The notes: generated by a model from the letters alone, not told the origin. Shown: positions 1 to 61,539, numbered from the stretch's first letter. The stretch: DNA of 64,000 nt from Candidatus Bathyarchaeota archaeon (GCA_963820555.1 CAWGAT010000023.1:27904-91903), one strand, 5' to 3'. Translations and numbers: made by a program.

Positions 1-1
1 G

Positions 2-94
2 AGCTTTTCAGGTAACGCTGACCACACGCTTCGCCTTGAATACTATGAGTACACAGGGAACGCCCGCGTTTCATTCAATGTAAAACAAGGGTAA
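2..94 (+). CDS. 3' end of a CDS entering from upstream of the window; PA14-like C-terminal motif (partial)
   Basis: Frame 2 is open from the window edge to TAA at 92-94. It reads SFSGNADHTLRLEYYEYTGNARVSFNVKQG*, which resembles the end of PA14/GLEYA-type carbohydrate-binding domains. Confidence 0.4.
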   Translation, partial: SFSGNADHTLRLEYYEYTGNARVSFNVKQG

Positions 95-148
95 CATTTT
101 TGATAAATATCAGTAGCCAGTTTCTCACAATGTGCGCACGGAAGTGAG

Positions 149-172
149 GATAAGGCTATGGCCCCAAACCCA
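149..172. repeat. Left copy of a 24-nt perfect inverted repeat (GATAAGGCTATGGCCCCAAACCCA)
   Basis: The exact reverse complement occurs at 12657-12680. The left copy runs into a short (CCCAAA)3 tract. Confidence 0.85.
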
Positions 173-282
173 AACCCAAAGGCCCCACGATACGCATGAA
201 ATCTCATCTGTATATGATCACTTTAGGTCAGAAACATTGTTTCATTAATCTCTTAAGTTACCTTCAACTTTGATAAGATGGG

Positions 283-975
283 ATGTCAATTAAGAATAAG
301 CTCTTCTTCACGGTAACCCTTGTGATCCTCATTCTCCCACTGCTCATGTCGGGTCAAGCTCAGGCGGCTCACAATCAAGAATACAGAGCCAGTTTTTCAT
401 GCCTCGCATCTGGAGGATGTATAGTGTTTCCCGACATTGGTTTATACGGATCGCCACCAGCAATAGTAGCCTATACAGGAATGGGCACCTTATCTCTATG
501 TGGATCTGCAAAAGCAACCCTATATCCCGCTAGTCTAACGGGTCTCACATTTCCAATCTATGTAGCTGAAAGGGGAGTCAAAGCTCTAGGTATGTTCACC
601 GCCACATGGAGCGGGCATAAAATAAGTTTACTCCTCTTCTCACGACCTGAAACCTCAGGTGCATTCGTAGACCCGAGTACCTATACTGACCTCTTTACTG
701 TAGGCTTCTATCCGATTTCAGGGCAGGGGTCATCTCCTACTTTGTCGTATAGTGGAATCTATATAACAGGCACGGGTGTTGAAGCCATATCTGGGAAGGC
801 TGTTGTTGCCTATGAGCCGAAATTCACTACAAACGTGATCGTAATTTCAGTTTATAGATCAGATGGAACCCCACTCGCAACGATAGGGTGGGCACCACAA
901 GCAATTCCAGAAATATTCAACATGCCCGCAGCTGATATCTTCAAACACAGTATAAAAATCACATTAATACAGTAG
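283..975 (+). CDS. Hypothetical secreted protein
   Basis: 230-aa ORF with an N-terminal signal peptide (hydrophobic core LVILILPLLM, AQA cleavage-like site). I recognise no family. Confidence 0.6.
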   Translation: MSIKNKLFFTVTLVILILPLLMSGQAQAAHNQEYRASFSCLASGGCIVFPDIGLYGSPPAIVAYTGMGTLSLCGSAKATLYPASLTGLTFPIYVAERGVKALGMFTATWSGHKISLLLFSRPETSGAFVDPSTYTDLFTVGFYPISGQGSSPTLSYSGIYITGTGVEAISGKAVVAYEPKFTTNVIVISVYRSDGTPLATIGWAPQAIPEIFNMPAADIFKHSIKITLIQ

Positions 976-1154
976 CCCTATTTTCACTTTTTTTTCGAGA
1001 TCTAAAAGGCACAGTGTCACTTCTGAATTATGCACGTGCTGCAGTCACCAATAATTCAATCGTCTGAACATCAACCATTACAATCACTGGTTGAGTATCC
1101 GGTGAAAGGAAGAATAAGACTATCGAGTCAATAATTTGGTCTACCACTAGGATT

Positions 1155-2621
1155 TTAATCCCATAACAGACCGTAGTCTTTGAACTCGGCTTTAACCTTG
1201 GTTATGAGTGATTCGTACTCGGGGCTTGGTCTGTGTTTTTGGAGGTCATAGCACTCTGTAATGAGCTTTCCCTTCTCAGGGGTCGGGGATGTCGTCAACT
1301 TTTCGATTATGCACTTAAACATTGGGTAGATGTCGCTCCGCTTTAAGCCGGCTTTCATCGCCACATCGGAGGCATCTATCATCAACTCCACGTCTGCTGG
1401 AGTCTGCCCTCCGTTCATCCGGCTCCTGCTGACCCTCGGCGTGTATAGATTAGCGCCATTCACCGCTGCTTCAATACTGCGCAAAATCAACTCCTCAAGG
1501 TGACTCTCTGTGCAGAGCTCGGACACGGGTATGGGCCAATGCATTGGAATGCCCTTACAGTTTCGGATAGTCGCTTGATAGACGACTGACCTCGCGAAGT
1601 TCACGGGGAACATGGCTCGCTTCATACCACTGATGTGGTTGAAGTGCTCTACCCCGTTGTAGTAGAGATTGTCGCGATAGACCATCCAAGCAATAATCGT
1701 CTTAACCAGGCTCTCGATTATGGCGCCACCTGGCCCCCCTGCAAATCCGCCCACTATTCCGAAGCTGCCGCTTATCCCGAAGTATCCGTGGCTCTGAAGC
1801 ACAAGCGCCGCAGTGATCAGGTCGTATTGGACCTTCACATCGGGTAGAACCGATAGGAGGACGCCGTCAGTTGGCCTCAGCCCAGCCACGGGATCGATGG
1901 TGGCGAGGAACGAGGAGGCCTCCGTGCTAATCGGGTAGTAGACTATGGCTGCGCCTGGTCTCCCGGCTTTCCTGATTCCCTCTCTGAGCCATGCCACTTG
2001 GCGTTTGGAGGCGTAGGCCTCCAGTGGCTCCCCGTATAACTCGTATCCATCGATGGCGGGGAGGTTGAAGCCCTCGAGGAAGTCGAGTCGGGGGATCATC
2101 GCGAAGTTCTGGACGACGATATTCGCCAGGTCCTCGGTGAATGGCGCGTGGTGGCCCGGCGCGATGTTGAGAGGCTCCTGTCCTTCGATCTTGTGCTGAT
2201 GCCAGACCCTCGCGTCTTTTCCCTCGCCCATTATGACCTCGCTCTGCATCGCTTTGATGGCTTCCTTCACCTCTTCCTCGGAGAACCTGACAACCCGCTC
2301 GCTGTCTATGCATAGGCAGCCTACGTCGACCACGAACCTTACCGCGGCCTGCCACGCTGAATCGGCTAAGCTGTTGTCCATGTTCAGCCAGTTAGACGGC
2401 TCGTCTGGAATCTTTATGTCGAACTCCTTCTCCAGTTCCTGCATTTTCTTGAAGAGGGCGATGTCCCACTCCTTGATTGTTTTCTTTGGCCCTCTCCGCA
2501 TTCGGTCAACAACTTCGACCAGGCTGATCATTATCCTCAAATCAATATTCATGTTCGACTTTAAATCAATAGATGTAGAGTATCTGTCTGATATTATAGT
2601 AGATACTTCGGAGAGCTTCAT
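1155..2621 (-). CDS. MtmB-family (monomethylamine methyltransferase-like) corrinoid methyltransferase, pyrrolysine-free paralogue 1
   Basis: The 488-aa ORF shares AGRPG, GGFAGGPGGAI and a C-terminal ECYDLQKHRPSPEY...DYGLL block with Methanosarcina MtmB as I recall it (AGRPG, FGGYAGGIEE, ECYDVKTVTPTEEY...DLGLVF). There is no in-frame TAG. The real start may be Met24 or Met31 (2552 or 2531), which would leave a normal divergent intergenic region. Confidence 0.8.
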   Translation of the reverse strand: MKLSEVSTIISDRYSTSIDLKSNMNIDLRIMISLVEVVDRMRRGPKKTIKEWDIALFKKMQELEKEFDIKIPDEPSNWLNMDNSLADSAWQAAVRFVVDVGCLCIDSERVVRFSEEEVKEAIKAMQSEVIMGEGKDARVWHQHKIEGQEPLNIAPGHHAPFTEDLANIVVQNFAMIPRLDFLEGFNLPAIDGYELYGEPLEAYASKRQVAWLREGIRKAGRPGAAIVYYPISTEASSFLATIDPVAGLRPTDGVLLSVLPDVKVQYDLITAALVLQSHGYFGISGSFGIVGGFAGGPGGAIIESLVKTIIAWMVYRDNLYYNGVEHFNHISGMKRAMFPVNFARSVVYQATIRNCKGIPMHWPIPVSELCTESHLEELILRSIEAAVNGANLYTPRVSRSRMNGGQTPADVELMIDASDVAMKAGLKRSDIYPMFKCIIEKLTTSPTPEKGKLITECYDLQKHRPSPEYESLITKVKAEFKDYGLLWD

Positions 2622-2674
2622 TTACCCGTTAATATGAAATACAGATTCGATTAGTAGACTGTCAGTGAGAATTC

Positions 2675-3346
2675 TTGACGAGTGAGGAACAGGTTCTGCA
2701 GAAACTGTATGAGGCAGTGCTTAACTTCGACTCCACGTCCGCGGAGAACGCTGCGAAAGAGGCGATATCCCTGAATATGGATCCGATCAAGGCCATTGAG
2801 GAGGGGCTCGCCAGGGGGCTTAGGGAGATCGGTGACAAGTTTGAGCGTGGCGAACTCTACCTCCCCCACCTCATCATGGGCGCGGACGCTATGGAAGCGG
2901 CCATCAAGGTCCTTGAGGGGCACATGACTCAAGGCGAATTAGACGCAACAAGCCGCGGAACCGTCGTTATCGGAACTGTTGAGGGTGACATCCATGACCT
3001 CGGCCTCCGCATAGTCTCCTCGATGCTTCGGGCCAACGGCTTCAAGGTCTACGATCTGGGCTTCAACACGAAGAGCCTAGACTTCATCGAGAAGGCGAAG
3101 GAGGTCAACGCGGACATAATCGCCGTCTCATCGCTGATGACCACCACTATGCCTTTCATGAAGGACCTCATCGAGGCATTGGAAGCTTCCGGGCTCCGGG
3201 GAAAGTTCTTAGTGATCGTGGGTGGCGGCCCCGTTTCGGAGCAGTGGGCCAAGGAAATCGGCGCAGATGGATATGGACGGGACGCGGCTGAGGCCGTCAG
3301 GGCCGCGAGGGAGCTAATGAAGCGCAAGAGGGGATTAGCACCTTGA
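2675..3346 (+). CDS. Corrinoid (B12-binding) methyl-carrier protein, MtmC/MtbC-like
   Basis: 223 aa with an N-terminal helical cap followed by a B12-binding domain. The DxHxxG motif appears as GDIHDLGLRIV, followed by SSLMTTT and GGGP. It has a TTG start, and its stop overlaps the next start (TTGA at 3343-3346). Confidence 0.85.
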   Translation: MTSEEQVLQKLYEAVLNFDSTSAENAAKEAISLNMDPIKAIEEGLARGLREIGDKFERGELYLPHLIMGADAMEAAIKVLEGHMTQGELDATSRGTVVIGTVEGDIHDLGLRIVSSMLRANGFKVYDLGFNTKSLDFIEKAKEVNADIIAVSSLMTTTMPFMKDLIEALEASGLRGKFLVIVGGGPVSEQWAKEIGADGYGRDAAEAVRAARELMKRKRGLAP

Positions 3347-4758
3347 CCTCGCCTAACCTCTGGGAGGTCCTCGACAGGGCCTGCAACACCGGTCAGGTGA
3401 TGCCGGGCAAGGACTTCGACATGAAGCTTTTCCACACGACCACGAGGCTCGTCAAGGAACATGGCATCAAGTACGACCCGAATACGCCAGTGACGAGTGA
3501 CGACGGACTGGCCGACGAGGTCTGGAAGGCCGGGTTAGAGTTGTTCGAGGAGGTTGGGTCATACTGCATCAACTCGGGCAGGATCATCAAGTTTGAGCCC
3601 TCCGAGATCAGGGATGGACTCAGGGACCTCCGCGGGGATGCGGTAGTCGGCGATGGAGCGGAGAAAAGGGTTCTGACCCTCAGGGGTGTTGAGGACAAGC
3701 GGCCTCCTTCCATCGTGTGCGGTGGAGTGATCGAGAGCGACTTCCCCGAGGGTGAGAACTTCGTCAAGCTCTATCAGAGCATCGCTCAAGAACCCTTCAT
3801 CGACGGCTTCTATGTGGGGCCTCCTCTGCACACATCAGAGGGACGACTCGTTAGATCTGGGACTCCACTTGAGGCGCACCTAGGAAAGTCGATGGCTACC
3901 TGGGTTCGGGAGGCTGTGAGGCGTGCCGGTAGGCCGGGGCTCCACTTCCTCTCCGCGTGCACCCCAGCCATCGCAAACGTCGCGGCATCGGATCCAATCG
4001 AAGGCCTGAGGCGCTCTGATGGTATCGTGGCGACGATCATGCCTGAGCTGAAGACTGACTACGAGAACCTGAACAAGGTTACATTCGCACACGACTATGG
4101 GTGCATCAAGCACATCTACAACGGCGGGATGATCGGGGGGTGGGCTGGGGGACCCGAGGGAGCCCTCGTCGTGTCCATTGCTAACGCCATAATGGCGGTC
4201 ATGGTTTACAAGATCGGCGTGGGCTCCTCCTACAACGCGCTGGGCTACCTGAGGGCTTCTGCGCCGAATTACAGCGCCTTCGTCACCCGCCCCTGCATAT
4301 GGGGATCAGCGATAGGCAGCCAAGCCCTCTCTAGGAATACGAAGATCATCAACACTGGGCTCGCCATGACCAACGCGGGGCCGGGCACAGAGATGCAGTT
4401 CCAGGAGATGGCTGCGGCCCAGTGCGCCGCAATCCCATGCGGCAGGGAGGGTCTCTCGCAGGGTGCTAGGAGGTTCAAGGTCAGGCCTCTTCTAGGCAGC
4501 GGTCTCGAGAACAGGTTCTGGGCTGAGGTAGGTTACGCCATGGCTGGGGTCAAGAGAGATCTAGCCAACTCCATCGCAAATTCACTACTTGCTAAGTACG
4601 AAAACAAGATCACACGAGAGTCTGATGGTGGCCCACCCGGGTATACTTTTGACGAGATATACGACTTGGTGACGCTGAAGCCGAGGAAACAATTTCTGGA
4701 TGTTTACGAGAAGGTGAAGAAGGAGCTGGAGGATCTCGGGTTAGATTTCAGGTACTAA
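3343..4758 (+). CDS. MtmB-family corrinoid methyltransferase, pyrrolysine-free paralogue 2
   Basis: The 471-aa ORF contains AGRPG, IGGWAGGPEGALVV, AGPGTEMQFQEMAAAQ, SGLENRFWAEVGYA and a C-terminal ELEDLGLDF. Each matches an MtmB block as I recall it. There is no in-frame TAG. Confidence 0.8.
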   Translation: MTSPNLWEVLDRACNTGQVMPGKDFDMKLFHTTTRLVKEHGIKYDPNTPVTSDDGLADEVWKAGLELFEEVGSYCINSGRIIKFEPSEIRDGLRDLRGDAVVGDGAEKRVLTLRGVEDKRPPSIVCGGVIESDFPEGENFVKLYQSIAQEPFIDGFYVGPPLHTSEGRLVRSGTPLEAHLGKSMATWVREAVRRAGRPGLHFLSACTPAIANVAASDPIEGLRRSDGIVATIMPELKTDYENLNKVTFAHDYGCIKHIYNGGMIGGWAGGPEGALVVSIANAIMAVMVYKIGVGSSYNALGYLRASAPNYSAFVTRPCIWGSAIGSQALSRNTKIINTGLAMTNAGPGTEMQFQEMAAAQCAAIPCGREGLSQGARRFKVRPLLGSGLENRFWAEVGYAMAGVKRDLANSIANSLLAKYENKITRESDGGPPGYTFDEIYDLVTLKPRKQFLDVYEKVKKELEDLGLDFRY

Positions 4759-4813
4759 CATACCAAATAAAGGCAGTCAAGAAACCAACCATACTGTTAA
4801 ATGGAAAAATGCC

Positions 4814-6691
4814 TTGAACTCATTTAAATTGAGTCCTTCTACAAAGGTGCTCTTCGAACCAATCGGAAAGAAGATCGACGCCTCAGCCAACGAAACCATT
4901 CTCGAAATCGCGACTCGAGCTGGCGTAGGTATCAGATCGGAGTGCGGTGGAGCCCAGACTTGTGGGAAATGCCGAGTCATCGTGAAGGATAGGAAAGGGC
5001 TAACGAGTCTAACCGAGAAGGAGAAACAACTCCTCTCCCAGACGAGAATATCCGAGGGATATCGTCTGGCGTGTGCTGCTAAAATATCCGCTGACTTGGA
5101 CCACTTGACCATCGCACTTCCGCCAAGCAGCCTCGTTAGGGAACGGAAATTCATGGAGGCGGGCATCGAAAGTAAGGTGAAGCTTGACCCCGCATTTAAG
5201 AAACTGGTTGTTGCTGTGTCCGTACCTGCCATAGGTGACCGGAGATCCGATGAGGTAAGGCTCTTGGACAGCCTCCGAGAGAGGCATGGATTGGAACACG
5301 TCTCGATCGACTACTCCGTTCTGAAGGATCTTCCCAACCACCTCTACTCTACTGATGCTGTAACAGCTGTCGTATGGGACGAATCCCAGCTGATCTCCCT
5401 TGAGGAAGGAGACACAAGCAGCATCCAGTACGCTTTGGCCATTGATGTTGGTACATCGAGGATAACTTGCTCACTTGTGAATACATTGACTGGTAGGAGG
5501 CTTGCACAAAAATCGATAGAGAACCCGCAGATCACCTATGGAGAGGATGTCATGACGCGTGTCTCCTTCTCACAGACGAGTGAAGAGAATCGGGTTCTCT
5601 TGCAGTGGTCAGTTGTCGAGGGTATTAACCGGCTAATCGAAACTCTCTGCGCCGAGAACCACATCTCACAAGCTAACATCTATGAGGCCGTCGTAGTGGG
5701 CAACACAGTGATGCACCATATGCTTCTCGGCATAGAGACGAGACAACTTGCGAGATCCCCATTCGAGCCGGCGACTAAAGCCTCGATTCACATAAAATCA
5801 GAAGAATTGGGGATGAAAATGAACCACGGGGGAGTAGTGACTCTTCTACCGATAATTGATGTATTCGTTGGAGCCGATGCCGTCGGAGACATCATCTCAA
5901 CCGGATTACATCGACGCCGAAAGCCTACCCTGCTTCTAGACATAGGGACAAACACCGAGGTTATGCTGAACGACGGCGGGCTCATCACGGCCTGCTCCTG
6001 TGCGTCCGGCCCAGCTTTTGAAGGCGTTCACATCGAGCACGGGATGAAAGCGGTGACTGGAGCGATCGAGAACCTCAGAATAGTTGATGGGGGCCTCAAC
6101 TTGAGCTATGATGTGATAGGGGGAGACAAACCCATCGGCCTCTGCGGCTCAGGAATAGTCGATGCAGTAGCTCAGCTCCTTTCATGTGGGATCATCGACA
6201 GAGTTGGAAGGTTCAAAGCCTCAGAGACGCCGAGGCTGAAGAAGCTGGGTGGCGTTACCAAGTTCGTGGTGGTCTGGAGTGATGAGAGCGGAACAGGCAG
6301 CGAGATCACGATTTCTCAGAAAGACATAACTGAGGTCATTCTCGCGAAGGCGGCGATTTACTCAGCCTGTGCTTCGCTGATGGCTATGAAAAAGTTAGAA
6401 GCCAAGGACATAAACTCAATTCTGGTAGCGGGTGCCTTCGGAAACCATCTGGACAAGAACAGCGCTAAGGCCATAGGGCTGTTGCCAGCCGTAGATAATC
6501 GGAGGATCCACTTCGTGGGCAACTCGGCTCTGGCTGGCGCTGAGATGGTGCTCAGATCTCGGGGTAAGCGCCTTTTAGCTGAGAAAGTATCGAGATGTAC
6601 CAGATACGTGGAGCTGGCTACAAGCAGTGATTTTGACCAGGAATTTACCGGAGCCCTATGGCTGCCCCATCGTGACCCAAACAGATTCTGA
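4814..6691 (+). CDS. Corrinoid reductive activase (RACo/AcsV/RamA-type; 2Fe-2S ferredoxin plus ASKHA ATPase)
   Basis: The N-terminus carries a plant-type 2Fe-2S motif, CGGAQTCGKCRV. The rest has ASKHA phosphate motifs AIDVGTSRI and LLDIGTNTE. It lies immediately downstream of the methyltransferase/corrinoid genes. The start is uncertain (TTG 4814 or GTG 4844). Confidence 0.8.
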   Translation: MNSFKLSPSTKVLFEPIGKKIDASANETILEIATRAGVGIRSECGGAQTCGKCRVIVKDRKGLTSLTEKEKQLLSQTRISEGYRLACAAKISADLDHLTIALPPSSLVRERKFMEAGIESKVKLDPAFKKLVVAVSVPAIGDRRSDEVRLLDSLRERHGLEHVSIDYSVLKDLPNHLYSTDAVTAVVWDESQLISLEEGDTSSIQYALAIDVGTSRITCSLVNTLTGRRLAQKSIENPQITYGEDVMTRVSFSQTSEENRVLLQWSVVEGINRLIETLCAENHISQANIYEAVVVGNTVMHHMLLGIETRQLARSPFEPATKASIHIKSEELGMKMNHGGVVTLLPIIDVFVGADAVGDIISTGLHRRRKPTLLLDIGTNTEVMLNDGGLITACSCASGPAFEGVHIEHGMKAVTGAIENLRIVDGGLNLSYDVIGGDKPIGLCGSGIVDAVAQLLSCGIIDRVGRFKASETPRLKKLGGVTKFVVVWSDESGTGSEITISQKDITEVILAKAAIYSACASLMAMKKLEAKDINSILVAGAFGNHLDKNSAKAIGLLPAVDNRRIHFVGNSALAGAEMVLRSRGKRLLAEKVSRCTRYVELATSSDFDQEFTGALWLPHRDPNRF

Positions 6692-6861
6692 TCTGACGCA
6701 GAAACATATGATAAATTTTGTTCTCGCACGCGCTGAGAGCGTCAGACCCTTGAGACGTTAATCAATGAGGAGGCTTTTCTCTTCGTGAAATATCTGAGAG
6801 GTGAAATTAAGAGCTGGATCCCGAGGGTACCCGGAAAATAGAGCGCACGCATACACGACAA

Positions 6862-7476
6862 TCAGAGACCTGTAAGGTGAGCTGCATCGTTAAGCCGTTC
6901 GATCGTCCTCTCACACAGATCGGTCTCCGATAAGACCGTGATAGCTGCATTATCGAACCTGTAGTTTATACCCCCAATCAGCTCTTCGGGAATCCGAAGC
7001 CACCAGTGGGTGACGTGAGTCAAAGAACCACTGTGCCCAACAACGACGAGGTTCTCCCCACTGGACCCATAGATACAGTTCATGACCTCCACCACCCGCG
7101 CGTTCAACATCCTCCAAGACTCCCCATTCGGGTAAGGGCACCAGTCAATCAATGGCTCAGTGGGATCGATGAACATCTGCTTGGCCTCTGCCTTGGTCTT
7201 CCACGCGGCATCCCCGTTGTTACCCTCTCGAAGCCCATGGTACACCTCTGGTTTGACCTCTACCACCTTCCCGATCGCCTCCGCGGTGTGGAGAGCCCGC
7301 TTAAGATCGCTTGATACGATTCGGCACGATGCCCCGTTGAGCAGCTCCTTTAGACGGGTGCCTACTCTTTCGGCTTGCAGGTTACCTCGCTTTGTCAACT
7401 TCGTGTCGGTCCATCCGCCGGTGATGTCTGTTATCTGGTTCTCTGCTTCACCGTGGCGGATCAGGAATAGTGGCAT
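6862..7476 (-). CDS. Histidine phosphatase family protein (phosphoglycerate mutase-like; a CobC-like alpha-ribazole phosphatase role is possible)
   Basis: Contains the RHG motif LIRHGEAENQ and a second catalytic His in VVVGHSGSL. 204 aa. The CobC idea rests only on its position next to the corrinoid cluster. Confidence 0.75.
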   Translation of the reverse strand: MPLFLIRHGEAENQITDITGGWTDTKLTKRGNLQAERVGTRLKELLNGASCRIVSSDLKRALHTAEAIGKVVEVKPEVYHGLREGNNGDAAWKTKAEAKQMFIDPTEPLIDWCPYPNGESWRMLNARVVEVMNCIYGSSGENLVVVGHSGSLTHVTHWWLRIPEELIGGINYRFDNAAITVLSETDLCERTIERLNDAAHLTGL

Positions 7477-7915
7477 GAGAATATGGTTGATGTGCCCGGA
7501 ATAATAGCGTTAAGAGGCTACTAAGCCGAATAGGCTGAGAAACGCGCGTTCAGAAGTTAAAGTGGAGATCTGATAACTCGATTTCAGAGGGAGTTACTGG
7601 AACAAGCAATCGAGTAGAAGTACACAGCTCTTTCACACCATTACGAAGTATGTACGTGTGTTTTTTGTGTTTAGAGAGAGTATAAAAGAGAATGGGTTTG
7701 TCGGGGAAAGTGTGTGTGTGTTTGGGGGATAAAATTTTACCCAACCAACCACGGGAAAGTTCTGGGTTGTTGTGGGATTTTATGGGATGCTGCTATAGGT
7801 CAGGGCAGGTAGAGATTGTCAGAGGCAGGAATAGGGAGTATACCTGTTTTCAGAGAAGAATATACTGATTTTAAGGGTAGATACAGTCAGTATCATAGGG
7901 AAAACGTAGGGACGT

Positions 7916-7943
7916 GTATATCCTTAGGAGAAAAAGGATATAC
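7916..7943 (-). terminator. Perfect 10-bp hairpin (GTATATCCTT-8 nt-AAGGATATAC) downstream of the DUF4062 gene
   Basis: The stem-loop is visible in the sequence. On the minus strand a short U-run (CGTTTTCCC) follows a few nt downstream. It lies about 100 nt past the stop of the 8041-9018 gene. A terminator function is inferred. Confidence 0.2.
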
Positions 7944-8040
7944 GAATAAGATGTGATATTTAAGTCAGTGATTTACACGCGCTTAACTTATTAACAAAGG
8001 GCTAATCGTGGACAAATACATAGAGGCATATACTCGCCTA

Positions 8041-9018
8041 CTATCGGTTTTCTCTTATCCAAGGCAATTTTTCAATCTCAATTTCAGGATACCAACCTGC
8101 ATTTGGTAAACTATACCCTAACGCATACCCTAAATATTCGGCTAACTTCTGCATTTTTTTTGTATAATATGATATTTCCTCGCTTTCAGAATTAATTACT
8201 CCATATACAATCCCTTCCTGTATTATTGGAACAACCAATTCAGATTTTGTTTCTATTACTGCTGCGCGGTAATCAGGTCTTATCTCCACATTATTAGCAT
8301 TAATTGTAATACCAGTTTGCAAAGTCTTTCCAATCAAACCTGTGAAAAGAGCAACCCTATAACGCTGTTTTATTTGCGGAATATTATCTGCGACACAAAT
8401 TAATTGACGTGTATAAGTCTCGGTTGTAAGTAGAAATATCTGATTGTAATCTGTTTTTGTGATTTTACAAAGAATCTGAATTGAGTTTTCAAGCAGTTCA
8501 AAAAGACTCTTATTTATTTTTAACTGACTGAGATAGGGATTATTTGTTAATAAATTACTTTGTAAAGAAATTAAATATTTACCAATCGAAGCGGCAACCT
8601 TTAATCCTAAATCATCAGGTGTGGTAAATCGCTCTACAATATATTTTCTTTTAATCTGTGATTTAAAACGTTCAAGTTTTGTTTTTCCAGTTTCATCTTC
8701 TTCTTTAGAAAGCGAAGAAAGATTTTCATCGATTATAAAACAAAAAACTGGTTTTTTAGATTTAATAGCCTGTTTATATTCAAGTTGAGTGATAGAAAAA
8801 CGTGCCCCTTGGGGTATAAATCCGTACCTGTAAGCATATATTCCAATAAACAAATCACAAGAATCAACTTCATTTAAACAAGCTTCTAAAGGTTCAATAG
8901 GTTTAGCCCCGAAAATTTCCATTCTTTCTGCATGTTGACCTAAACGCTCAATAGCATCTATTGCCGCTTTTCTGTAATCTTTTAAGTCCCTATAAGTAGA
9001 ACTTATAAAAATCTTCAT
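8041..9018 (-). CDS. DUF4062 (TIR/nucleoside-deoxyribosyltransferase-like) N-terminal domain protein with a GAF-like C-terminal domain
   Basis: The N-terminus MKIFISSTYRDLKDYRKAAIDAIERLG...CDLFIGIYAYRYGFIP...SITQLEYKQA matches the DUF4062 consensus (vFiSSt.rDl.eeR, cDlfigi.g.rYG, S.te.Ey). The C-terminal part (ELVVPIIQEGIVYGVINSESEE) looks GAF-like. The gene is markedly AT-rich compared with its neighbours. Confidence 0.7.
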   Translation of the reverse strand: MKIFISSTYRDLKDYRKAAIDAIERLGQHAERMEIFGAKPIEPLEACLNEVDSCDLFIGIYAYRYGFIPQGARFSITQLEYKQAIKSKKPVFCFIIDENLSSLSKEEDETGKTKLERFKSQIKRKYIVERFTTPDDLGLKVAASIGKYLISLQSNLLTNNPYLSQLKINKSLFELLENSIQILCKITKTDYNQIFLLTTETYTRQLICVADNIPQIKQRYRVALFTGLIGKTLQTGITINANNVEIRPDYRAAVIETKSELVVPIIQEGIVYGVINSESEEISYYTKKMQKLAEYLGYALGYSLPNAGWYPEIEIEKLPWIRENR

Positions 9019-21472: not shown

Positions 21473-23736
21473 TTAGATCGTGACGCGGTAGCGGTCCATG
21501 AGCTCCTGGCGCTTCCCCTCGTTCCACCCCGTCACGTCCGTGTAGTACCCCGTGATCCTGCTCCACCAGCGCACGTTCTCCGACCCACACGAGGGGCACG
21601 TCTTCAGCATCCCCGGCGAGGTGCTCGCACATTTACTGCACACCGTTAGGTCCTTCGTGTAGGCTGAAGTACCCGATCTGGCTGTTCCTGCAGATGCGCT
21701 GCGTCAGCTTGTAGAGCGCCTCCGGGTCCGAGCAGGCCTCGCCTAGCCAGGCGTGGAAGATGTTCCCGCCGCTCAGTATGGGGAAGAACTTGTGCTCTAT
21801 GTCGATCTTCGTCCCCAGTGGGATCTTCGCCCCAACGTAGGTGTGGGTACCGTTGCTGTAGTAGACGGGGAGGTCCCTCTTTCCCTTCGTCAGCGCCGCT
21901 GCCCCCTCCAAGTCGCCCTTTCACAGTTTTGACGGCGTACTTCTTGTACGTCGGGGAGACGAGGTCGCTGATGGCGAAGGTCTGCGCCGTAGACTCAGCG
22001 GGCGTCCTCGCCAGCATTATCTTGAACCCGTTCCTCATCTCAAGCCCCTTCCTGTACTTCTCCATGTCGAGCAGGAGCCTGATGGCGAGGCGCACGGAGT
22101 CGGGGTCCTCGTGTAGCTGCTTACCAGTGAAGTGCTGAACCATCTCGTTGACGCCTACGACGCCTATGACGTTCACCAGCTCCGAGAAGTCGACCGCCGG
22201 TGGCCCCAGCTGCCCCGTGTGCGGGTCCCTGGGCGTCTGCGTCGCGAAAGGTACCATATTGTTGGCGAGCGCCTTCTTCATCCAGTGCTGCTTCGTCTTG
22301 AAGACGTCGACGGCCATGCGCATGTTCTCCTGCGCCGCCTCAAGCAGCTTGTCGTAGTCGCCGTTGGCGCGGTAGGCCATCCTAGGCATGTTCAGGCTGA
22401 CGACCTGCCAGCCGCCCATGCTGAAGTGCTGACCGCCCTCGAAGTAGAGCTTCTCGTTGAAGTGCGGGTCAGTCTCCGGCGTGTTCGCGAACTGGTACGC
22501 GCAGCACTGGTAGCAGCTTATGCCGTTGCCGTAGCCGCGGTAGGTGGGGAGCATGTTGTCGAAGTAAGGCGCCCCGAACTTGCCCACCGACTCGTGGACG
22601 AGCATCCAGAGGTCGTCGTACTCAGGCTTGAAGAACTCGGGCGAGACGTAGTTCTCGTTCTTCGGGAAGTTGAAGGGCTTCCCCAGTAGTCCCCCTCCAG
22701 CGCCACCTCGGTGATGGCGCGGAAGAACATCTGAACCTCGTCCTCGTAGCTGCCGTAGGTGTCCGGCCCGACACGCCCCTTCATCACGACGGGCACGTTC
22801 TGCCAGATCTTCGGCACACCCATCGGCAGCTGGATGTTACTGAACACCAGCTGCCCGCCACGCGTCACGTAGGTCTGCGTCAGCTCGTAGAACATCATCT
22901 GGGCGAGCTGCTTCACCTTCTCGTAGGGGAGCCCCCTGAGGAAGGGCGCGAGGAACATCGTGTAGTACATGAAGCCCTGGCCGCCGCTGAAGTTCGTCTG
23001 CCCCGCGGCCAGCACCTTCACGCTGTGGAGGATGGCCACCTCCGGCTGCTTCGCTGGGCCAGCGACGCTGCTCCTGAAGCCCGAGCCATCGGGGATGAGC
23101 CCGTAGTAGAGGAAGTAGCGGAGGTCCCAGTCCTGGCAGAAGGGGCGGCGAGCCGAAGTACTCCAGCGTGTGGATGTGGATGTCACCCTGGTGGTGCGCC
23201 GTCGCCAGCGTCGGGTCCATCAGGAGCAGGTACTGCTCCTTGCTGAGCCTGTCCGCCTTCTTCTTGTGCACCGTCTCCGGGTTCGGCTGAAGGTTCGCGT
23301 TCTCCTTCGCCTCGAAGCCGCTGCCCGTGTCAATCTCGTACGCATCCACCACAGGGACACCGACACGCGTCAGGATGTTCCTGTAGACCTGGAGCTCCGG
23401 CATGTTCTCCGACTCGCTCCACTCGAGGAGGACGTTGTTCGTGATCTCCCTCACCATCGGGCCGGAGACGACCTTTGGCTTGATGAGCTTGATGCGCTTC
23501 TCGACCTCCTGGCTGAGCTTCTCCGCCCTCATGGTGCTCATGGGCTTTATCCCGAACATCGTCTCGGCGAGCTCCGTCTCCCTTACGAGCTGATCCACTA
23601 TCCTCGCCTTGTTCCACTCCACAAGGTAGCCGTCGGTGGTGCGCACCATCGGCATACCCCGGTAGAGGCGCTCTGCCTTGTAGAACTGGTCTATGAACGT
23701 CTGCCCCTCGGGAAGATCCCTACCCCTCTTTAACAT
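21473..23736 (-). CDS. nrdD: Anaerobic ribonucleoside-triphosphate reductase NrdD, interrupted by at least four frame breaks
   Basis: The N-terminal ATP-cone-like region is in ORF 22837-23736 and the catalytic core lies across ORFs 22518-23186, 21646-22605 and 21633-21911. My translation of the last segment gives TKDLTVCSKCAS...CPSCGSENVRWWSRITGYYTDVTGWNEGKRQELMDRYRVTI*, containing the Zn-ribbon and the glycyl-radical RITGYY motif. Stop at 21473-21475. Confidence 0.8.
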
Positions 23737-30191: not shown

Positions 30192-31425
30192 TTAGTCCTG
30201 CTGGGAATAGGCTTCCTCGCCGTGCTCCGCGAGGTCGAGCCCTTTCTCCTCGTCCTCCGGTGAGACCCTGAGAGGGGAGAAGATGTTGATGAACTTGAGC
30301 AGCAGGTAGGAGCCGAAGAAGGAGTAGGCGGCGATCACCACGACTGCAAGGATCTGTGAGAAGAGTAGGCCGGGGTTACCGAATAGGTAACCGTTCACTG
30401 CGGTCGGGTTGATGGCGAGTGGTGGCGAAGATGCCAGTGGCGATCGAGCCCCAGATGCCGCTCACGCCGTGGCAGGAGAACACGTCGAGGGTGTCGTCGA
30501 TGCGGGTCCTCGTCGCCCTCCAGCTCGACATCAGGTTGGATATTATGCCTGCAACGAGCCCGATGAACATGGCGGACATGACGTTCACGTATCCCGAGGC
30601 GGGTGTGATGGCCACTAGACCGCAGACTGCGCCGACCGCCATGCCCACCGCCGAGGGCTTACCCTTCGTGATCCAATCCACCGCCATCCAGCTGACGGCC
30701 GCCGTCGCGGCTGCGAGGTTCGTGTTTACCAAGGCGAAGACCATTGTCGAGTCCGCGCCGAGGGCGCTCCCAGCGTTGAAGCCGAACCAGCCGAACCACA
30801 GCAGCGCGGCTCCGAGGATGACGTAGGGGATGTTGCTGGGTTTCAACGTCTCCTTCTTTTCTATGTCTTTCCTCCGTCCGATGACGATTGCCGCGGCGAG
30901 GGCGGAGAGACCCGCGGTGATGTGGACGACTAGGCCCCCTGCGAAGTCTATGGCGCCGAGGGCCTTGAGCCACCCGGCGGAGTTCCAAACCCAGTGCGCC
31001 ACGGGGCTGTAGATGAGAGTCGACCAGAGTATAATGAAGATGAGCAGGGAGCGGAAGTGGATCCTCTCAGCGAACGCCCCGATGATCAGTGCTGGCGTGA
31101 TCGCGGCGAACTTTAGCTGGAATGCGAAGAAGAGTAGTTCGGGAATAAGCGGGGCGTAGGCGAGGTTGGGCGCGGCGCCTATGCCGTTGAGCCCAGCCCA
31201 GGAGAGGTCACCGATTATCCCGTGGATGCTCGGCCCGAAGACGAGGCTGTAACCCCAGAGGGTCCAGACTATGCTGACGACCGCGAAAATGATGAGGCAC
31301 TGAACCAGCGTCGACAGCAGGTTCTTCCTCCTGACTAGCCCCGCGTAGAAGAAGCCTAACGCGGGGGTCATGAGCATTACAAGCGCGGTGGCTACCGCAA
31401 CCCAGGCGATGTCACCCGGATTCAA
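30192..31425 (-). CDS. amt: Ammonium transporter Amt (one frame break near 30385-30400)
   Basis: Collinear and highly similar by eye to the intact paralogue at 60001-61236 (FFYAGLVRRKN, DFAGGLVVHITAG, WFGWFGFNAGS, DDTLDVFSCHGVSGIWG). The last 68 aa are in ORF 30192-30398. Confidence 0.85.
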
Positions 31426-31682
31426 TCAGTCAAACACCTTCACCGAAAGACGAAAAACAACGTATTTGAGGTTTATCCACTTAAATAGCTACAAATGCCT
31501 TTTAAATGTCCAGAATTATGGCATGGGAATTCTACGTTATAAGCGGAAATAACCATATTTTACGTAATTACTCTGAGCTAAAAACGAGGTTTAAAGCTAG
31601 GTTATCTTATTTTATGCGGTAATTCTTAATGAAAATCTTCGAAATAAGGAAATCGGTAGAGATTTGCGGACTATGTTCGGTT

Positions 31683-31952
31683 TTAGATTATGAAATATTT
31701 TGGACAGACCTCGTCTCCGCCGGCCCAGAGGGCGGTCTGGATGTTCTTGACGCCAGGAATGGCGGCTATCTCCCCGCCGAGCCTCATGAGGTGGGAGAAG
31801 TCGTGTATAACCCCGATGGCAAGGAGGTCGTGGTCGCCGACCGTCTTCGTCGCCACGATTATGTTCGGCATCTTGATGAGGGCTCTTAGGATGCTCGTGG
31901 AGTCGGTCTTGGCGCCGCCGCTCGTTGATGCATCTATGTGGAAGGCGGCCAT
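31683..31952 (-). CDS. Lrp/AsnC-family regulator 2 of module 1, C-terminal ligand-binding (RAM) part
   Basis: MAAFHIDASTSGGAKTDSTSILRALIKMPNIIVATKTVGDHDLLAIGVIHDF... aligns residue for residue with 61540-62004. Confidence 0.75.
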   Translation of the reverse strand: MAAFHIDASTSGGAKTDSTSILRALIKMPNIIVATKTVGDHDLLAIGVIHDFSHLMRLGGEIAAIPGVKNIQTALWAGGDEVCPKYFII

Positions 31953-32626
31953 CCCCTCGTAGCCAATCTTACTCGGCTCGACGACGACCGTCGACCCCTG
32001 ATCTCCCCCTCCTCCCTGAGCCTCTCATACCTCTTGATTATAGTGTCAGGACTCTTCCCTAGGTCCTTCGCCATCTGCCTGAAGCTCGTCCTCGCATCAG
32101 CAGTGAGGATCTCGATGATCCTCTCATCCAACTCGTCCATCACGGTGAGACCCCCTTTAAGCCCCTCGAGCTCGAAGTTCTCCGGGCAGAGGAGTATGTC
32201 CTCGGCCCAGATGCTCGTGGTGACCGTCTTCACATCGGGGTGTGCCTTCGTCCTCTCTATGAGGGCGTTAAGCTCGTTCACGTTCCCGAGGGCGACGATG
32301 GCGAAGATGTTCTGCATCCCGACGCTCGGCGTACAGAATATGACCCCCGATTGCCCCCGGAGGTTATCGACGACCTCGTCGACGTGCTTAGGATCGACAC
32401 CAATCTCGAGGCTCGCAGCGCACTCGAGGCCCAGGTGACGGGGGTCAAGGAGAATCGTCGTCCCCTTGACTATACCGGCCCTCCTGAGTCGCTGGAACCG
32501 CTTGATTATCGTGTCGACGCTAACATCGCACTCCACGGCGATGTCCGCGAAGTTCGTTCGGGCGTCACGCTGGAGTCTCCGGATGACCCTGACATCGGTC
32601 TCGTCGAACTTCATATCGCAGCCCAA
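31934..32626 (-). CDS. Lrp/AsnC-family regulator 1 of module 1, read through into the HTH of regulator 2
   Basis: An HTH (RVIRRLQRDARTNFADIAVECDVSVDTIIKRFQRL) plus a RAM domain, followed in the same frame by a second HTH (IIEILTADARTSFRQMAKDLGKSPDTIIKRYERL). Removing one C from the C5 run at 32151-32155 would restore the TGATG stop/start overlap seen at 62004. Confidence 0.75.
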   Translation of the reverse strand: MGCDMKFDETDVRVIRRLQRDARTNFADIAVECDVSVDTIIKRFQRLRRAGIVKGTTILLDPRHLGLECAASLEIGVDPKHVDEVVDNLRGQSGVIFCTPSVGMQNIFAIVALGNVNELNALIERTKAHPDVKTVTTSIWAEDILLCPENFELEGLKGGLTVMDELDERIIEILTADARTSFRQMAKDLGKSPDTIIKRYERLREEGEIRGRRSSSSRVRLATRGWPPST

Positions 32627-47282: not shown

Positions 47283-49154
47283 TCAAGCTATCTTCACGAG
47301 CTGCATCTCGCAAAGGCGCCTATAAAGCTCGTTTTTCTTGAGCAGCTGTGAGTGAGTCCCCTCAGCCTGGACCTCACCCTGATAGAGGACGATGATGCGG
47401 TCAGCGTCACGCACTGTGCTGACACGGTGCGTGACGATGAGGATGGTTCTATTCTCCATCTCCGCCTTCAGCGCATTCTGGATCAGCTGCTCAGTGTATG
47501 GGTCAACGCTACTCGTAGCCTCGTCAAGTATGAGTATCTTCGGGTCAACGATGAGGGCCCGGGCTAGACAGACTAGCTGGCGCTGCCCATAGCTTAGGTT
47601 GCTCCCCCTCTCACGCACCTCCTCATCGTATCCCTTAGGCAGCTTCATGATGGGCTCGTGGATGCCGACGAGTTTCGTGATCCTAAGCATATCCTCCTCG
47701 GAGGCTTCAGGGCGACCAAACTTGAGGTTATACCTAAGCGTCCCTTGGAAGAGGTAGGGCTCCTGTAGCACTATGCCCACCTTGTGTCGGAGCGACTTTA
47801 GCTTCACCTTCCTGAGATCGAGCCCATCGATCAGCACCTCACCAGCGTCCGGGTCATAGAAGCGGCCGACGAGGTTGATGATGCTGGACTTCCCTGATCC
47901 GGTGGGGCCGAAGATCGCGAGGCGCTCCCCCGGCCTGGTCTTAATGTTGATCCCCTTGAGGACCGGCTGATCCTTGACATAACTGAATTTGACATCCTTC
48001 AGCTCGATGATCCCATCGCCCTCGGGGAACTCAACGGCGTCGGGTGCTTCACTCACCTCTGGGTTGATGTCCAGCACCACGAAGATCCTCTCAGCACCCG
48101 CTAACGCACTCTGTATCCCACCGTAGAATGTGCTGATGTTGTTGATCGGGGTCAGGAAGCTGTCACTGTACTGAACGAAGGCCACAAGGTCGCCGAGGCT
48201 CCTTATCGCGGCGACGACCTGCTGACCGCCAACGAACCAGATCAGGCTGCTAATGAGCGCGGTGAAGAAGCCGACAGTGGCCTCATAGATGTTAGCGGTC
48301 ACCTCAGCCCTGTATCTGCGCAGTAGCATTAGCCTGATTCACCTTGTTGAAGTCGGTGAGGCTCCTCTCCTCCTGAGCCATAGCCTTCGTCACCTTGGCG
48401 CCGTACATGAGGTCCTGAACCTTCGCCGTCATGGAGGCGATGTTGAGCCTAGCTACCCTCCACCTGTCGCGTACGAACTTGTTCAGGGTCCTCGTAACAA
48501 TCGCTATGATCGGTGCCATGGCTATTGCCACTAGGGCGAGTTGGACATCTAAGAGGAACATCGTCGCCAGTATCGCCACGGCAGTCAACAGGTCGGCTAC
48601 GACGCCAATCATGCCCGAGGAGACAAGAGTCCTCATCGCCTCCGCGTCATTCGTGACCCTCGAGACCAGCTTGCCGGTGTTACCGTACTCGAAGAAGTTC
48701 TGGCTCAGCTTCTCCAAATGGTTGAAGAAATCCGACCTAATGTCGGCTATCATGTGGAACCCGAGCTTGTTGATGTAGTACTCCTGAAGACTCATGACGA
48801 TCCACAGCAGAACACCCACACCCACATAGACGAGTCCAGCCGATGCAATGTTCGTCCAGGCTGTCGGTGAACCGCCGCTGATGAATGCTGAGATTCCCAG
48901 GATTATTTTGGCGAGCCATTGCTCGTTCGCCTCGGGCTGGTTGCTGATGAAATTGTCTAGGGTAACCTTGTAGATAATGGCCCAGCCAAGACTAGAATCG
49001 TCTTTAAGACTATGATGAGGCCGACGCCACCGACGAGAGGCTTGTGTCGGAACATGTACTCCCTGACGATCCTCTTAACTAGCTGCCAGTCAGTGAACTT
49101 CCTCTGCGTTGACTCAAGGGAACCTACATCGTATCTTCCCGCGTACTCCGCCAT
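47283..49154 (-). CDS. ABC exporter, fused permease/ATPase (MdlB/MsbA-like), two frame breaks
   Basis: Pieces 48957-49154, 48304-48825 and 47283-48329 are collinear. The NBD has GPTGSGKSS, LSYGQRQLVCLARAL and ILILDEATS. Confidence 0.8.
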
Positions 49155-50987
49155 CAGTCATCAGCCTCCTGCTCCATGGTGAGGGTCTGTGACTCAATCA
49201 GCCTACGATACTTCTCGCTCGTCTTCAGAAGCATGTCATGCTTGCCGATAGCAGCAATATGTCCCTCATCAACCACAACAACCTTGTCAGCGTTCTCGCA
49301 TGTGGAGGCGCGCTGAGTGATTATCAACGCGGTTCGACCCTCCAGAAGCGCGTCAATGGCCTTCCGAATGAGGACCTCCGTCTCCGCATCGACGTTGCTG
49401 GTTGAGTCGTCGAGTATCAGGATCGAAGGGTTCATCAGTAACACTCTTGCGATGGCAACTCTCTGCCTCTGACCCCCGCTTAGGGTGAGTCCCCTCTCCC
49501 CAACCTCGGTTTCGTATCCCTTCGGCAGAGAGGCGATGTAGTCATGGATCTGCGCGGCCTTAGCGGCTGCGATAACCTCCTCATCCGTCGCATCTGGTTT
49601 ACCGAATGTGATGTTCTCCTTGATTGTCGTTGAGAATATGTAGATGTCCTGAAGAACGATGCCTATCTGGCTCCTGAGAGACTTTAGCGACGCCTCCCGG
49701 ACGTCGTGACCATCCACGAGAACTGCCCCAGCGGTCGCATCGTAGAACCGGGGAACAAGCTCCGTCAACGCGCTTTTACCCGAGCCGACGAAGCCAATTA
49801 TCGCCACCTTCTCCCCTGACTCGACCTTGAGATTCACATCCTTCAGAGTCTCGGCCGCGCCATAGCTGAAGGAGACGTTCCTAAACTCGATGTCACCCTT
49901 CAAGCGGGGCAGCGCAATTGGGTGCTCAGCCTCCGGCACGTCCCTGCCAACATCTACGACCTCGTAAACGCGTCGAGCACTTACCAACCCATCCTGGTAG
50001 AAATCGATGAGCCGAGCGTACATCCTCACGGGCCCAACCAGCTGGGTGAAGTATGTTCCGAAGAGCACCAATTCACCCAACGTTAGGCTGCCCCCAACTA
50101 CCAGGATACCGCCGAACACTAGGACCAAGGCAACGCCAATTGCGCTGATCACCGTGCCCGAGGGCGTGTAGGCCGCCTGTATCTTCAGGGTTCTCAAGCT
50201 CTTCTCGACGTATCCCTGATTCTCCTTCTCAAACCTGCCAGCAAAGCTATCCTCCTGGCCAAAACCCTTGATGAGTTTCTGCGCGGTGATTCCCTCGACC
50301 AGGACGCCGTTAAGGGTGTCAAACTGAGACTTTGCGGCAAGCATACGGCTCCTGACCCTCGGCAGGTAAAGCCGCGTCGCCAGGAAGATGAACGGGAGAG
50401 TGAAGTAGGGTGATGCCGGTTAAGCCCGGGTTAATGAACAGCAGGATTACGACCGCGATGACCAGCTGAAGGGTCATCCTGAAGACCTCCCTCACAGTCT
50501 CCGAGTAGAAGAGATCAATGGCGTTCATGTCGCTCGTAACTCGACTGATGATCTGACCTGTTCTGACTTGACTGAGGTAGCTGAACGACTTGTTGATCAG
50601 GGCGTTGTACAGATCCCTGCGTAGATCACGGAGAATGTTCTGGCTCAGAACTCCGCGGAAGTATCTATGGATGACGAAGAAAGCTGCCCTAATAATGGCT
50701 AGCAGAATGATAAGGCTGACAAGTATGATCAATAGACCATACCTATCCGTGACGCCGGTCCACTGTTTGACGAGTTCGAGGAACCAGTTCTTATCCCCTG
50801 GAACCGGGACCAAAACGTAGTCAATTATGAGTAGGACGAGGAGCGGAGCAAGTAAGCTGTATACGCCCTCCCTTCCGAACGCCGTGAGGTTGATCAATAT
50901 GTAGGTGCCCATGTAGGGCTTGATCTGTCCCAGTAGGCGCTTCGTCAGGTTCCAGCTACTAGGGTTATAGTCAGTCAAATTGCCCAA
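49154..50987 (-). CDS. ABC exporter, fused permease/ATPase partner subunit, one frame break
   Basis: Pieces 50319-50987 (TMD) and 49154-50344. The NBD has GFVGSGKSA, LSGGQRQRVAIARVL and ILILDDSTS. The stop abuts the next gene's start. Confidence 0.8.
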
Positions 50988-51050
50988 ACCTGACTCTAGA
51001 TAGATATATTAGTAATATATGTAGATTTTCATACTAGTGCGTGGGTTAGT

Positions 51051-51521
51051 TTGACTACGATCCTACCCAGAGAATCAGGGATAAGCCCCGTCCAGATGTG
51101 GCTCCTATTCATCCTGTCTGATGGACCGGACTACGGCTATAATCTGATTCAGCGTCTGGATCGAATGTTCTCGGGTTACTGGAAGCCTAAAGCTGGAACA
51201 ATATACCCTGCCCTGGATAAGCTCACGAATGAGGGGTTGGTATCAAGAAGCCATGAACATAGGGAGGAGGGATTGGATAGGAGAAACTACACCATCACGC
51301 CCCTGGGAGAGGAGGCCCTAAGAAAGGGGATGGATCGCTGGAGCCAAGTTATGGAGCACGTCGAACTCTACGGCGAGAGACACCGGGCTCTGAGGAGGCT
51401 TAAGAAGGAGATGCCGCGGAAGGAGCTGGCTGACGCAATTATCAGATTGGGAGAATCGATAAGAAAGTCCTCATTCGACGTTTCAGAAGTGATACCTGTT
51501 TTAGAGTCGATGGAAGATTGA
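51051..51521 (+). CDS. PadR-family transcriptional regulator
   Basis: LFILSDGPDYGYNLIQRLD...KPKAGTIYPALDKLTNEGLVS is the PadR wHTH signature. It is divergent from the ABC exporter pair. Confidence 0.85.
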   Translation: MTTILPRESGISPVQMWLLFILSDGPDYGYNLIQRLDRMFSGYWKPKAGTIYPALDKLTNEGLVSRSHEHREEGLDRRNYTITPLGEEALRKGMDRWSQVMEHVELYGERHRALRRLKKEMPRKELADAIIRLGESIRKSSFDVSEVIPVLESMED

Positions 51522-61236: not shown

Positions 61237-61539
61237 CGAAACACCTTCCTGAAGGGGGCTAAAATACGATATTTAGAGTTTTTCTGCAAAAAAAATACGG
61301 AAAATTTATGATTGTCCTATTATCACTAAGGATAATTCTACATTTTCTTTTTTAAGATCATTATTTTTAATATATACCAAGATTTGCCTAGAAAATGGCG
61401 GGGGGCAACTTAAGGTTTCTAAATAAATCGAACCTAAAACCAACAAACAAGTGGAAAGAGCGGGAAATGACATGAAAATATATTTTCATAGAATCATTGG
61501 CGTGATAATCGGAAGAAATCGACGAAAACGTGGTGCAGA

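Follow-up and report, generated by a model that had tools for sequence, protein, structure and literature searches.

The 64,000-nt stretch of DNA analyzed here (the window), derived from an uncultured sediment archaeon of the Bathyarchaeia, carries a compact and conserved cluster of four genes (Table 1). Two paralogues, termed P1 and P2, which by profile matching and structural modelling are true, pyrrolysine (Pyl)-free members of the MtmB family of methyltransferases, flank the gene of a single corrinoid protein, and the cluster includes its own reductive activase. On balance, we favor the view that the cluster supplies one half, the substrate-activating one, of a methyl-transfer system that depends on a corrinoid; P1 and P2 would serve as two Pyl-free substrate:corrinoid methyltransferases (MT1) acting on substrates other than monomethylamine (MMA), and the second methyltransferase (MT2) would be encoded elsewhere. 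Wherever the nearest homologues (93-96% identity) are named, they are called Candidatus Bathyarchaeia or Bathyarchaeota.

The four open reading frames (ORFs) lie at the positions given in the first-pass annotation of this DNA, and the sequence observations made there on the cluster all hold, with one correction to the start codon of P1. The two strongly diverged MtmB-like paralogues that it described are 27% identical to each other, and both exceed the cut-off (25 bits) of Pfam family PF05369 over the full profile, P1 with 150.4 bits over profile positions 2-450 and P2 with 231.1 bits over positions 4-450 (profile length 450). None of the NCBIfam models matches either protein. Comparison by hidden Markov model and by structure, proposed in the same annotation as the test of an MtmB fold, places both proteins inside the family: the AlphaFold2 models, each built from a small alignment, reached a predicted local distance difference test score of 86.6 and a predicted template modelling (TM) score of 0.90 for P1 (80.9 and 0.87 for P2) and gave TM scores of 0.88-0.90 against MtmB crystal structures. 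In Foldseek searches, P1 matched 1NTH with TM 0.89/0.90 (E-value 1.7e-33) and P2 with TM 0.88/0.90 (E-value 3.4e-36), and the next-best folds for both models were structures of the MttB family (TM ∼0.5). The sequence identity of Methanosarcina barkeri MtmB is 28% to P2 and 21% to P1.

Neither ORF contains an internal stop, and the reported lack of an in-frame TAG, together with a sense codon at the Pyl position, was borne out. This position was read after both proteins had been aligned by HMMER with M. barkeri MtmB (PDB 1L2Q, with Pyl202 written as X), of which P1 spans residues 10-457 and P2 residues 11-458. Opposite Pyl202 stand Val197 of P1 (codon GTC, 1941-1943, minus strand) and Leu203 of P2 (codon CTC, 3949-3951). 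The TAG-containing homologues, which occur in Methanosarcinaceae, Methanomassiliicoccales and several bacteria, all follow the pattern AGRPG-x-x-x-*-G-P-[EQ]. The corresponding regions of the window proteins read AGRPGAAIVYYP in P1 and AGRPGLHFLSAC in P2, both without the "O-GP[EQ]" signature.

The absence of Pyl is widespread in this family. A HMMER search over 1.84 billion representatives, grouped into 50%-identity clusters, returned 877 MtmB-family clusters with a threshold of E ≤ 1e-3, of which 198 passed the stricter E ≤ 1e-30. Among the best 150 of the 877, nearly all are uninterrupted ORFs of 450-470 aa, such that most of the best family matches are Pyl-free. The Pyl202 column of the best-match alignment varies widely, with V in 24, L in 21, I in 17 and G in 15 sequences and other residues in the rest. 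Within the P1-type proteins, valine occupies this position in 108 of 114, and within the P2-type proteins it is less constant, being I in 64, V in 8, A in 8, L in 4 and K in 4 of 88. In a neighbor-joining tree, the P1-type proteins form one deep clade, the P2-type proteins and a third, related type form another, and the Pyl-containing MtmB proteins are located elsewhere.

The lysines found at the Pyl-equivalent position of a subset of P2-type proteins are an evolutionary curiosity. They are encoded by AAA, as in locus L093 (6607-6609; …GRPGLHF-K-SACT), and occur likewise in P0069, P0074, P0075 and P0081. Pyl itself is synthesized from lysine.

The window as a whole was surveyed by a Pfam search of 50 of the 58 ORFs that reach 150 aa, in which, as the first-pass annotation had stated, neither an MT2 nor a pyl gene was detected; nor were genes for mcr, the Wood-Ljungdahl pathway, MtrH or pterin-binding proteins. 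Six-frame tblastn of the window revealed no homologue of URO-D (the uroporphyrinogen decarboxylase family of MT2 enzymes) or of MttB, and no tRNA-Pyl was found in the 64 kb. The codon TAG serves as an ordinary stop, terminating 10 of 50 window genes. In Pyl-decoding methanogens TAG accounts for <5% of stops, as compared with about 17-18% in organisms that do not use Pyl (PMC12180501), so that the count, as window-level evidence, points to a non-Pyl organism. Some Bathyarchaeota encode PylRS (PMC5424206).

The protein encoded between the paralogues carries both domains expected of a corrinoid protein, the B12-binding_2 cap (76 bits) and the Rossmann-type B12-binding domain (106.8 bits), and the DxHxxG motif (His-on) reported for it is present as DIHDLG (residues 105-110, with D105, H107 and G110; 2987-3004). 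It scores 219 bits against TIGR02370, above the cut-off of 215.3, and thus belongs to that family. Among the NCBIfam models, the best scores were obtained with MtbC (221.9 bits) and MtgC (206.7 bits), as against 126 bits with MtaC; by these scores the protein groups with the amine-type MtbC and MtgC, far above the methanol-type MtaC. The TTGA overlap through which its gene was said to be coupled to P2 is likewise evident in the sequence, the TTG start of P2 sharing positions 3343-3346 with the TGA stop of the corrinoid gene, and this TTG corresponds, in alignment and by homology, to the ATG at which orthologues from other lineages (loci L004 and L006) begin.

The activase that follows P2 was described earlier as a 2Fe-2S/ASKHA protein, and this description is accurate: an N-terminal plant-type 2Fe-2S ferredoxin domain precedes the linker, middle and ASKHA domains, and all four Pfam domains match. 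It is not of the RamA type that serves the monomethylamine system of methanogens. The score against RamA model TIGR04270 is 121 bits (cut-off 500), and that against AcsV is 466 bits (below its cut-off of 800); the gene is RACo/AcsV-like.

Two side observations concern the activation of the corrinoid. In loci L001 (4290-4350), L002 and L003, the closest relatives of the window (P2 93% identical), RACo was called as two genes, encoding a 100-aa Fer2 part and a 517-aa ASKHA part. The split coincides with a run of C residues and an apparent one-base length difference, and the same region of the window (5100-5140) lies within one continuous 625-aa ORF; as three independent assemblies show it, the split may be genuine there. 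Moreover, in a sub-lineage that has no adjacent RACo gene, the P1-type gene is adjoined by a gene for a protein of 222-232 aa (L010:7198-7896, L093:3224-3892 and, as a tblastn match only, L092), which weakly matches the methionine-synthase activation domain (Met_synt_B12) and may represent an alternative route of corrinoid reactivation.

For P1, the ORF annotated at 1155-2621 stands, and its proposed start at ATG 2621 does not. The homologues are 458-465 aa long, and the stretch 2553-2621 differs from that of L001 by one 3-nt and one 1-nt indel, which indicates that it is not coding and that P1 starts at 2531 or 2552. In the intergenic region between the two divergent transcription units, the ∼70 nt before the corrinoid gene (2605-2674) are nearly identical in the window, L001 and L003, although the synonymous divergence (dS) of the flanking genes is 0.65-0.8. 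To judge from this conservation, the segment is probably a promoter, an operator or a 5′ leader. The conservation is limited to the closest relatives and is absent in more distant loci, and an Rfam search of the region gave no match.

The organization of the cluster was compared in 14 related loci (L001-L010 and L091-L093, all annotated, plus L011). The core does not vary among the nine bathyarchaeial loci that are 7 kb or longer: a P1-type gene on the minus strand diverges from the corrinoid gene on the plus strand, and a P2-type gene, also on the plus strand, comes next. A RACo gene occurs within 10 kb in six of these nine. Most of the related genomes carry a third paralogue (∼468 aa), which is 54-57% identical to P2 and forms its sister clade, and the two-paralogue version is found in the window and its closest relatives. 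Each paralogue type is represented by >100 clusters at 90% identity, whose members are 73-96% identical to the window P1 or P2. The ratio of nonsynonymous to synonymous substitution rates (dN/dS), computed for the window versus three relatives, is 0.05-0.11 for all four cluster genes (0.05-0.08 for P1 and 0.05-0.10 for P2). The genes are thus functional and under purifying selection, rather than decaying.

Methanococcoides methylutens Q3c encodes the only Pyl-free MtmB homologue with a described activity, MtqB (Kashyap et al. 2026; PMC13044021), whose activity was presented as the first function for any non-Pyl MtmB. As methyl donors for cob(I)alamin this enzyme accepts tetramethylammonium (37 nmol/min/mg) and choline (42) and, to a small extent, MMA (11), but neither trimethylamine nor glycine betaine (PMC13044021). 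In the tree of 1,061 Pyl-containing and Pyl-free MtmB sequences from the same study, all proteins outside the Pyl-MtmB and MtqB clades are non-Pyl and of unknown function (PMC13044021). A genome scan with a four-sequence alignment yielded 80 named family loci, including L011, from an uncultured Methanosarcinales metagenome-assembled genome (MAG), in which a 216-aa corrinoid protein, sharing 43% identity with its window counterpart, is followed by a 459-aa Pyl-free MtmB homologue. By gene sizes and gene order, which agree with those published for MtqC and MtqB, and by taxonomy and Met/Cys-rich motifs, rather than by comparison with the actual MtqB sequence, L011 is putatively MtqB-like. P2 and P1 are 29% and 27% identical, respectively, to the MtmB homologue of L011, and both fall outside its clade, in the separate deep clades described above, the assignment of L011 and of protein P0365 to the MtqB clade being itself inferred. 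P1 and P2 are therefore as distant from the MtqB-like clade as from Pyl-MtmB, and the specificity of MtqB is not transferable to them.

On the favored reading, the cluster would operate in three steps. The RACo-type activase would use ATP and a low-potential electron to reduce the corrinoid from inactive Co(II) to Co(I); P1 and P2 would each act as an MT1 that moves the methyl from its own methylated substrate to Co(I), giving CH3-Co(III); and an MT2 encoded elsewhere would pass the methyl group to a one-carbon (C1) carrier, most likely tetrahydromethanopterin (H4MPT), for acetogenesis or oxidation. The likeliest candidates for such an MT2 would be an enzyme resembling MtrH, coupled to a corrinoid protein, or one of the URO-D type. 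Couples of corrinoid protein and MtrH have been proposed in Bathyarchaeia to pass methyl groups to H4MPT (PMC7886697). The host of the window is a non-methanogen, unlike that of MtqB, which makes coenzyme M an unlikely acceptor.

With respect to the substrates, the Pyl imine of the characterized MtmB serves to activate MMA. Having no Pyl with which to activate a primary amine, P1 and P2 most likely use substrates other than MMA, and these would more likely carry an already activated methyl group, with quaternary or other N-methylated amines as the leading guess. N-methyl donors are favored, if indirectly, by the substrates of MtmB and MtqB, by the amine-type scores of the corrinoid protein and by the Pyl-free MttB-family gene that follows the cluster in L004. 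P1 and P2 probably have different substrates. A more specific proposal, which we put forward tentatively and at somewhat less than even chances, is that the P1-, P2- and third-type proteins are Bathyarchaeia-specific MtmB-fold enzymes, whose substrates would lie outside the three known for the family (MMA, tetramethylammonium and choline) and might be other abundant osmolytes of sediments or the successive demethylation stages of one polymethylated amine.

Several points weigh against this interpretation. Neither the window nor any of the nine related bathyarchaeial loci has an MT2 gene beside the cluster. The transfer of a substrate class from MtqB is weak, since P1 and P2 share only 27-29% identity with its putative relative and belong to different deep clades, and the class proposed for these clades is a prediction. 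P1 departs from motifs that are common to Pyl-MtmB, the MtqB-like protein and P2, reading SELCTES where these have AGPCTEM and PADVE where they have GMEAR; it may accordingly work differently from P2 or bind a different kind of substrate. The low activity of MtqB with MMA in the absence of Pyl means that P1 and P2 may, by analogy, use MMA as well. Finally, none of the transporter and catabolic genes near the cluster recurs consistently across the related loci: MFS, SSF, Peptidase_M19, creatininase and Lyase_1 genes each occur in only one to three of them.

Among the alternatives, the one that fares best, unlikely as we judge it, assigns to P1 and P2 O- or S-methyl substrates, for instance methoxylated aromatics or sulfur compounds that carry methyl groups. 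It would fit the proposed lignin-methyl lifestyle of the Bathyarchaeia, which grow on lignin-derived methoxy groups (PMC10989822), and it would accommodate both the hydrophobic residue at the Pyl position and the aromatic-rich segments nearby in P1 (VYYP, HWPIP). However, both characterized MtmB-family enzymes act on N-methyl substrates, and the type of corrinoid protein and the MttB-family gene of L004 likewise point to amines. The known bathyarchaeial O-demethylase, the MtgB of Ca. Baizosediminiarchaeum, is moreover an unrelated protein of ∼300 aa, with no homology to known MT1s (PMC10989822). The identification of P1 or P2 with that published MtgB was considered and rejected on the same grounds.

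A slightly poorer prospect is that P1 and P2 are MMA:corrinoid methyltransferases that function without Pyl and feed methylamine carbon and ammonium into the metabolism of the Bathyarchaeia. This is what the names in NCBI and JGI suggest, in which homologues appear as monomethylamine or methylamine corrinoid methyltransferases, and a survey of the Bathyarchaeia counts mtmB in seven orders as MMA (methylamine) use, with Pyl not mentioned (PMC10321748). The MMA activity of the Pyl-free MtqB would also be in its favor, yet MMA gave the lowest of the three activities of that enzyme (PMC13044021). The database names look automatic, no NCBIfam model fits P1 or P2, and the Pyl position is occupied by Val or Leu in the window proteins and varies freely among I, V, A, L and K in the P2 type. 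The first-pass proposal of a substrate other than MMA is therefore retained as the best inference, in view of the use of tetramethylammonium and choline by MtqB, whereas a strict exclusion of MMA is not.

It was also suggested in the first-pass annotation that the paralogues might divide the work into one MT1-like and one MT2-like half-reaction, in which case P2 would be the MT1 and the divergent P1 the missing MT2, taking the methyl group from CH3-Co(III) to the acceptor. The lack of a canonical MT2 in the window or adjacent in the nine related loci, together with the loss from P1 of the motifs conserved in the other MtmB-type proteins, would be explained in this manner. We nonetheless regard this role as very unlikely. 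The protein P0238, which is 58% identical to P1, occupies the classical MT1 position in an operon composed of corrinoid, MtmB-like and URO-D (MT2) genes, which argues against P1 as an MT2. Furthermore, an adjacent MT2 is uncommon: within ±3 kb of the 80 named family loci, a corrinoid gene was found in ∼63, RACo in ∼12 and URO-D in only ∼5, so that a distant MT2 is normal for the MtmB family. Most of the related genomes carry three paralogues, rather than two, and an MT2 with an MtmB fold is not known. A reading of P1 and P2 as superfluous Pyl-type mtmB copies in decay, for which nothing speaks except the absence of Pyl, can be dismissed, since the ORFs are intact, the dN/dS values are low, the homologues are conserved in the hundreds with the same synteny, and both proteins belong to deep clades apart from Pyl-MtmB.

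Beyond the cluster, the two genes next downstream are not conserved beside it in the relatives (Table 1), and a repeat scan of window positions 1-8000 turned up nothing but fortuitous matches and weak traces of the paralogy between P1 and P2.

Table 1. Features of the MtmB-type cluster and its downstream neighbors (window coordinates)
Feature	Position	Strand	Remarks
P1-type Pyl-free MtmB-family methyltransferase (putative MT1)	1155-2531	-	458 aa from ATG 2531; alternative ATG 2552
AT-rich divergent intergenic region	2532-2674		promoters for both transcription units presumed
Corrinoid (cobalamin-binding) protein	2675-3346	+	223 aa; B12-binding_2 and B12-binding domains, DxHxxG
P2-type Pyl-free MtmB-family methyltransferase (putative MT1)	3343-4758	+	471 aa; TTG start
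RACo-type ATP-dependent reductive activator of corrinoid proteins	4814-6691	+	625 aa; Fer2, RACo_linker, Raco_middle, RACo_C_ter
Histidine-phosphatase-family gene	6862-7476		downstream of the cluster; not conserved beside it in relatives
DUF4062–GAF protein, unknown role	8041-9018		after the histidine-phosphatase-family gene; not conserved beside the cluster in relatives

Elsewhere in the window, several genes appear to be broken up or shortened. NrdD is represented by two fragments (21646-23736), two ABC exporters are each broken into overlapping ORFs (47283-48825 and 49154-50987), and one ammonium transporter (30376-31425) comprises 349 aa, compared with 411 aa in the other copy. These may reflect sequencing or assembly frameshifts or real pseudogenes; the MtmB-type cluster is intact. 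The two Amt-family ammonium transporter genes (30376-32626 and 60001-62471) are each located beside genes for AsnC/Lrp-type regulators, 25-55 kb away from the cluster. A PadR regulator and two ABC exporters (L008:1-4167) lie immediately upstream of the cluster in L008; the equivalent module of the window (47283-51521) is 45 kb from the cluster, and the synteny is probably coincidental.

If the more specific, Bathyarchaeia-specific proposal put forward above is true, paralogues that share one corrinoid protein could constitute a major misannotated route, by which methylated nitrogen compounds enter non-methanogenic C1 metabolism in very abundant archaea. A bathyarchaeial mtmB that lacks Pyl and is far from both characterized members of the family is probably misread as a sign of MMA use. 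Knowledge of the true substrates would change estimates of the methane-free consumers of methylated amines and osmolytes in sediments, and the abundance of the Bathyarchaeia makes the question ecologically significant. The principle itself is already established, inasmuch as most of the best family matches are Pyl-free, bathyarchaeial mtmB genes have been catalogued and MtqB was described in 2026. Since a Pyl-free MtmB homologue with another substrate is thus on record, the gain would lie in a new specificity and not in a new mechanism.

Compared with the known systems, the cluster resembles the MtmB/MtmC/RamA system of Methanosarcina (1NTH, 1L2Q) in Pfam family, fold (TM ∼0.9), the AGRPG and GG(Y/W/F)AGG motifs, and the combination of a corrinoid-protein partner with a reductive activator. 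It differs from that system in the lack of UAG/Pyl, of the O-GPE motif and of MtbA, in the modest identity of the methyltransferases (21-28%), in an activase of the RACo type, with its N-terminal 2Fe-2S domain, instead of RamA, and in the use of TAG as an ordinary stop. The bathyarchaeial MtgB/MtgC/MtgA system shares with the window its host group and the presence of two diverged MT1 paralogues on one corrinoid protein. In contrast, that system includes an MT2 but no activase, and the window an activase but no MT2.

The Pyl-free methyltransferases of the MttB superfamily, MtgB, MtcB, MtpB and MtyB, use quaternary amines. They thereby provide a precedent for the association of Pyl loss or absence with a switch to such substrates, and they share the three-component corrinoid architecture; they belong, however, to a different family (PF06253), with only remote TIM-barrel similarity to P1 and P2 (TM ∼0.5). 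MtqB/MtqC resembles the window cluster in the pairing of a Pyl-free MtmB-family MT1 with an adjacent MtbC-like corrinoid protein of ∼216-223 aa and, as predicted for the window, in an MT2 encoded elsewhere. Unlike the MtqB-like protein of L011, P1 and P2 lack the Met/Cys-rich segments CMCPIMGGY and SSGMCTEM, and, unlike MtqB/MtqC, the window has two paralogues (elsewhere three) per corrinoid protein together with a linked RACo. The cluster adds an uncharacterized member, or two such clades, to a type of system that is already known, and it is common in public MAGs.

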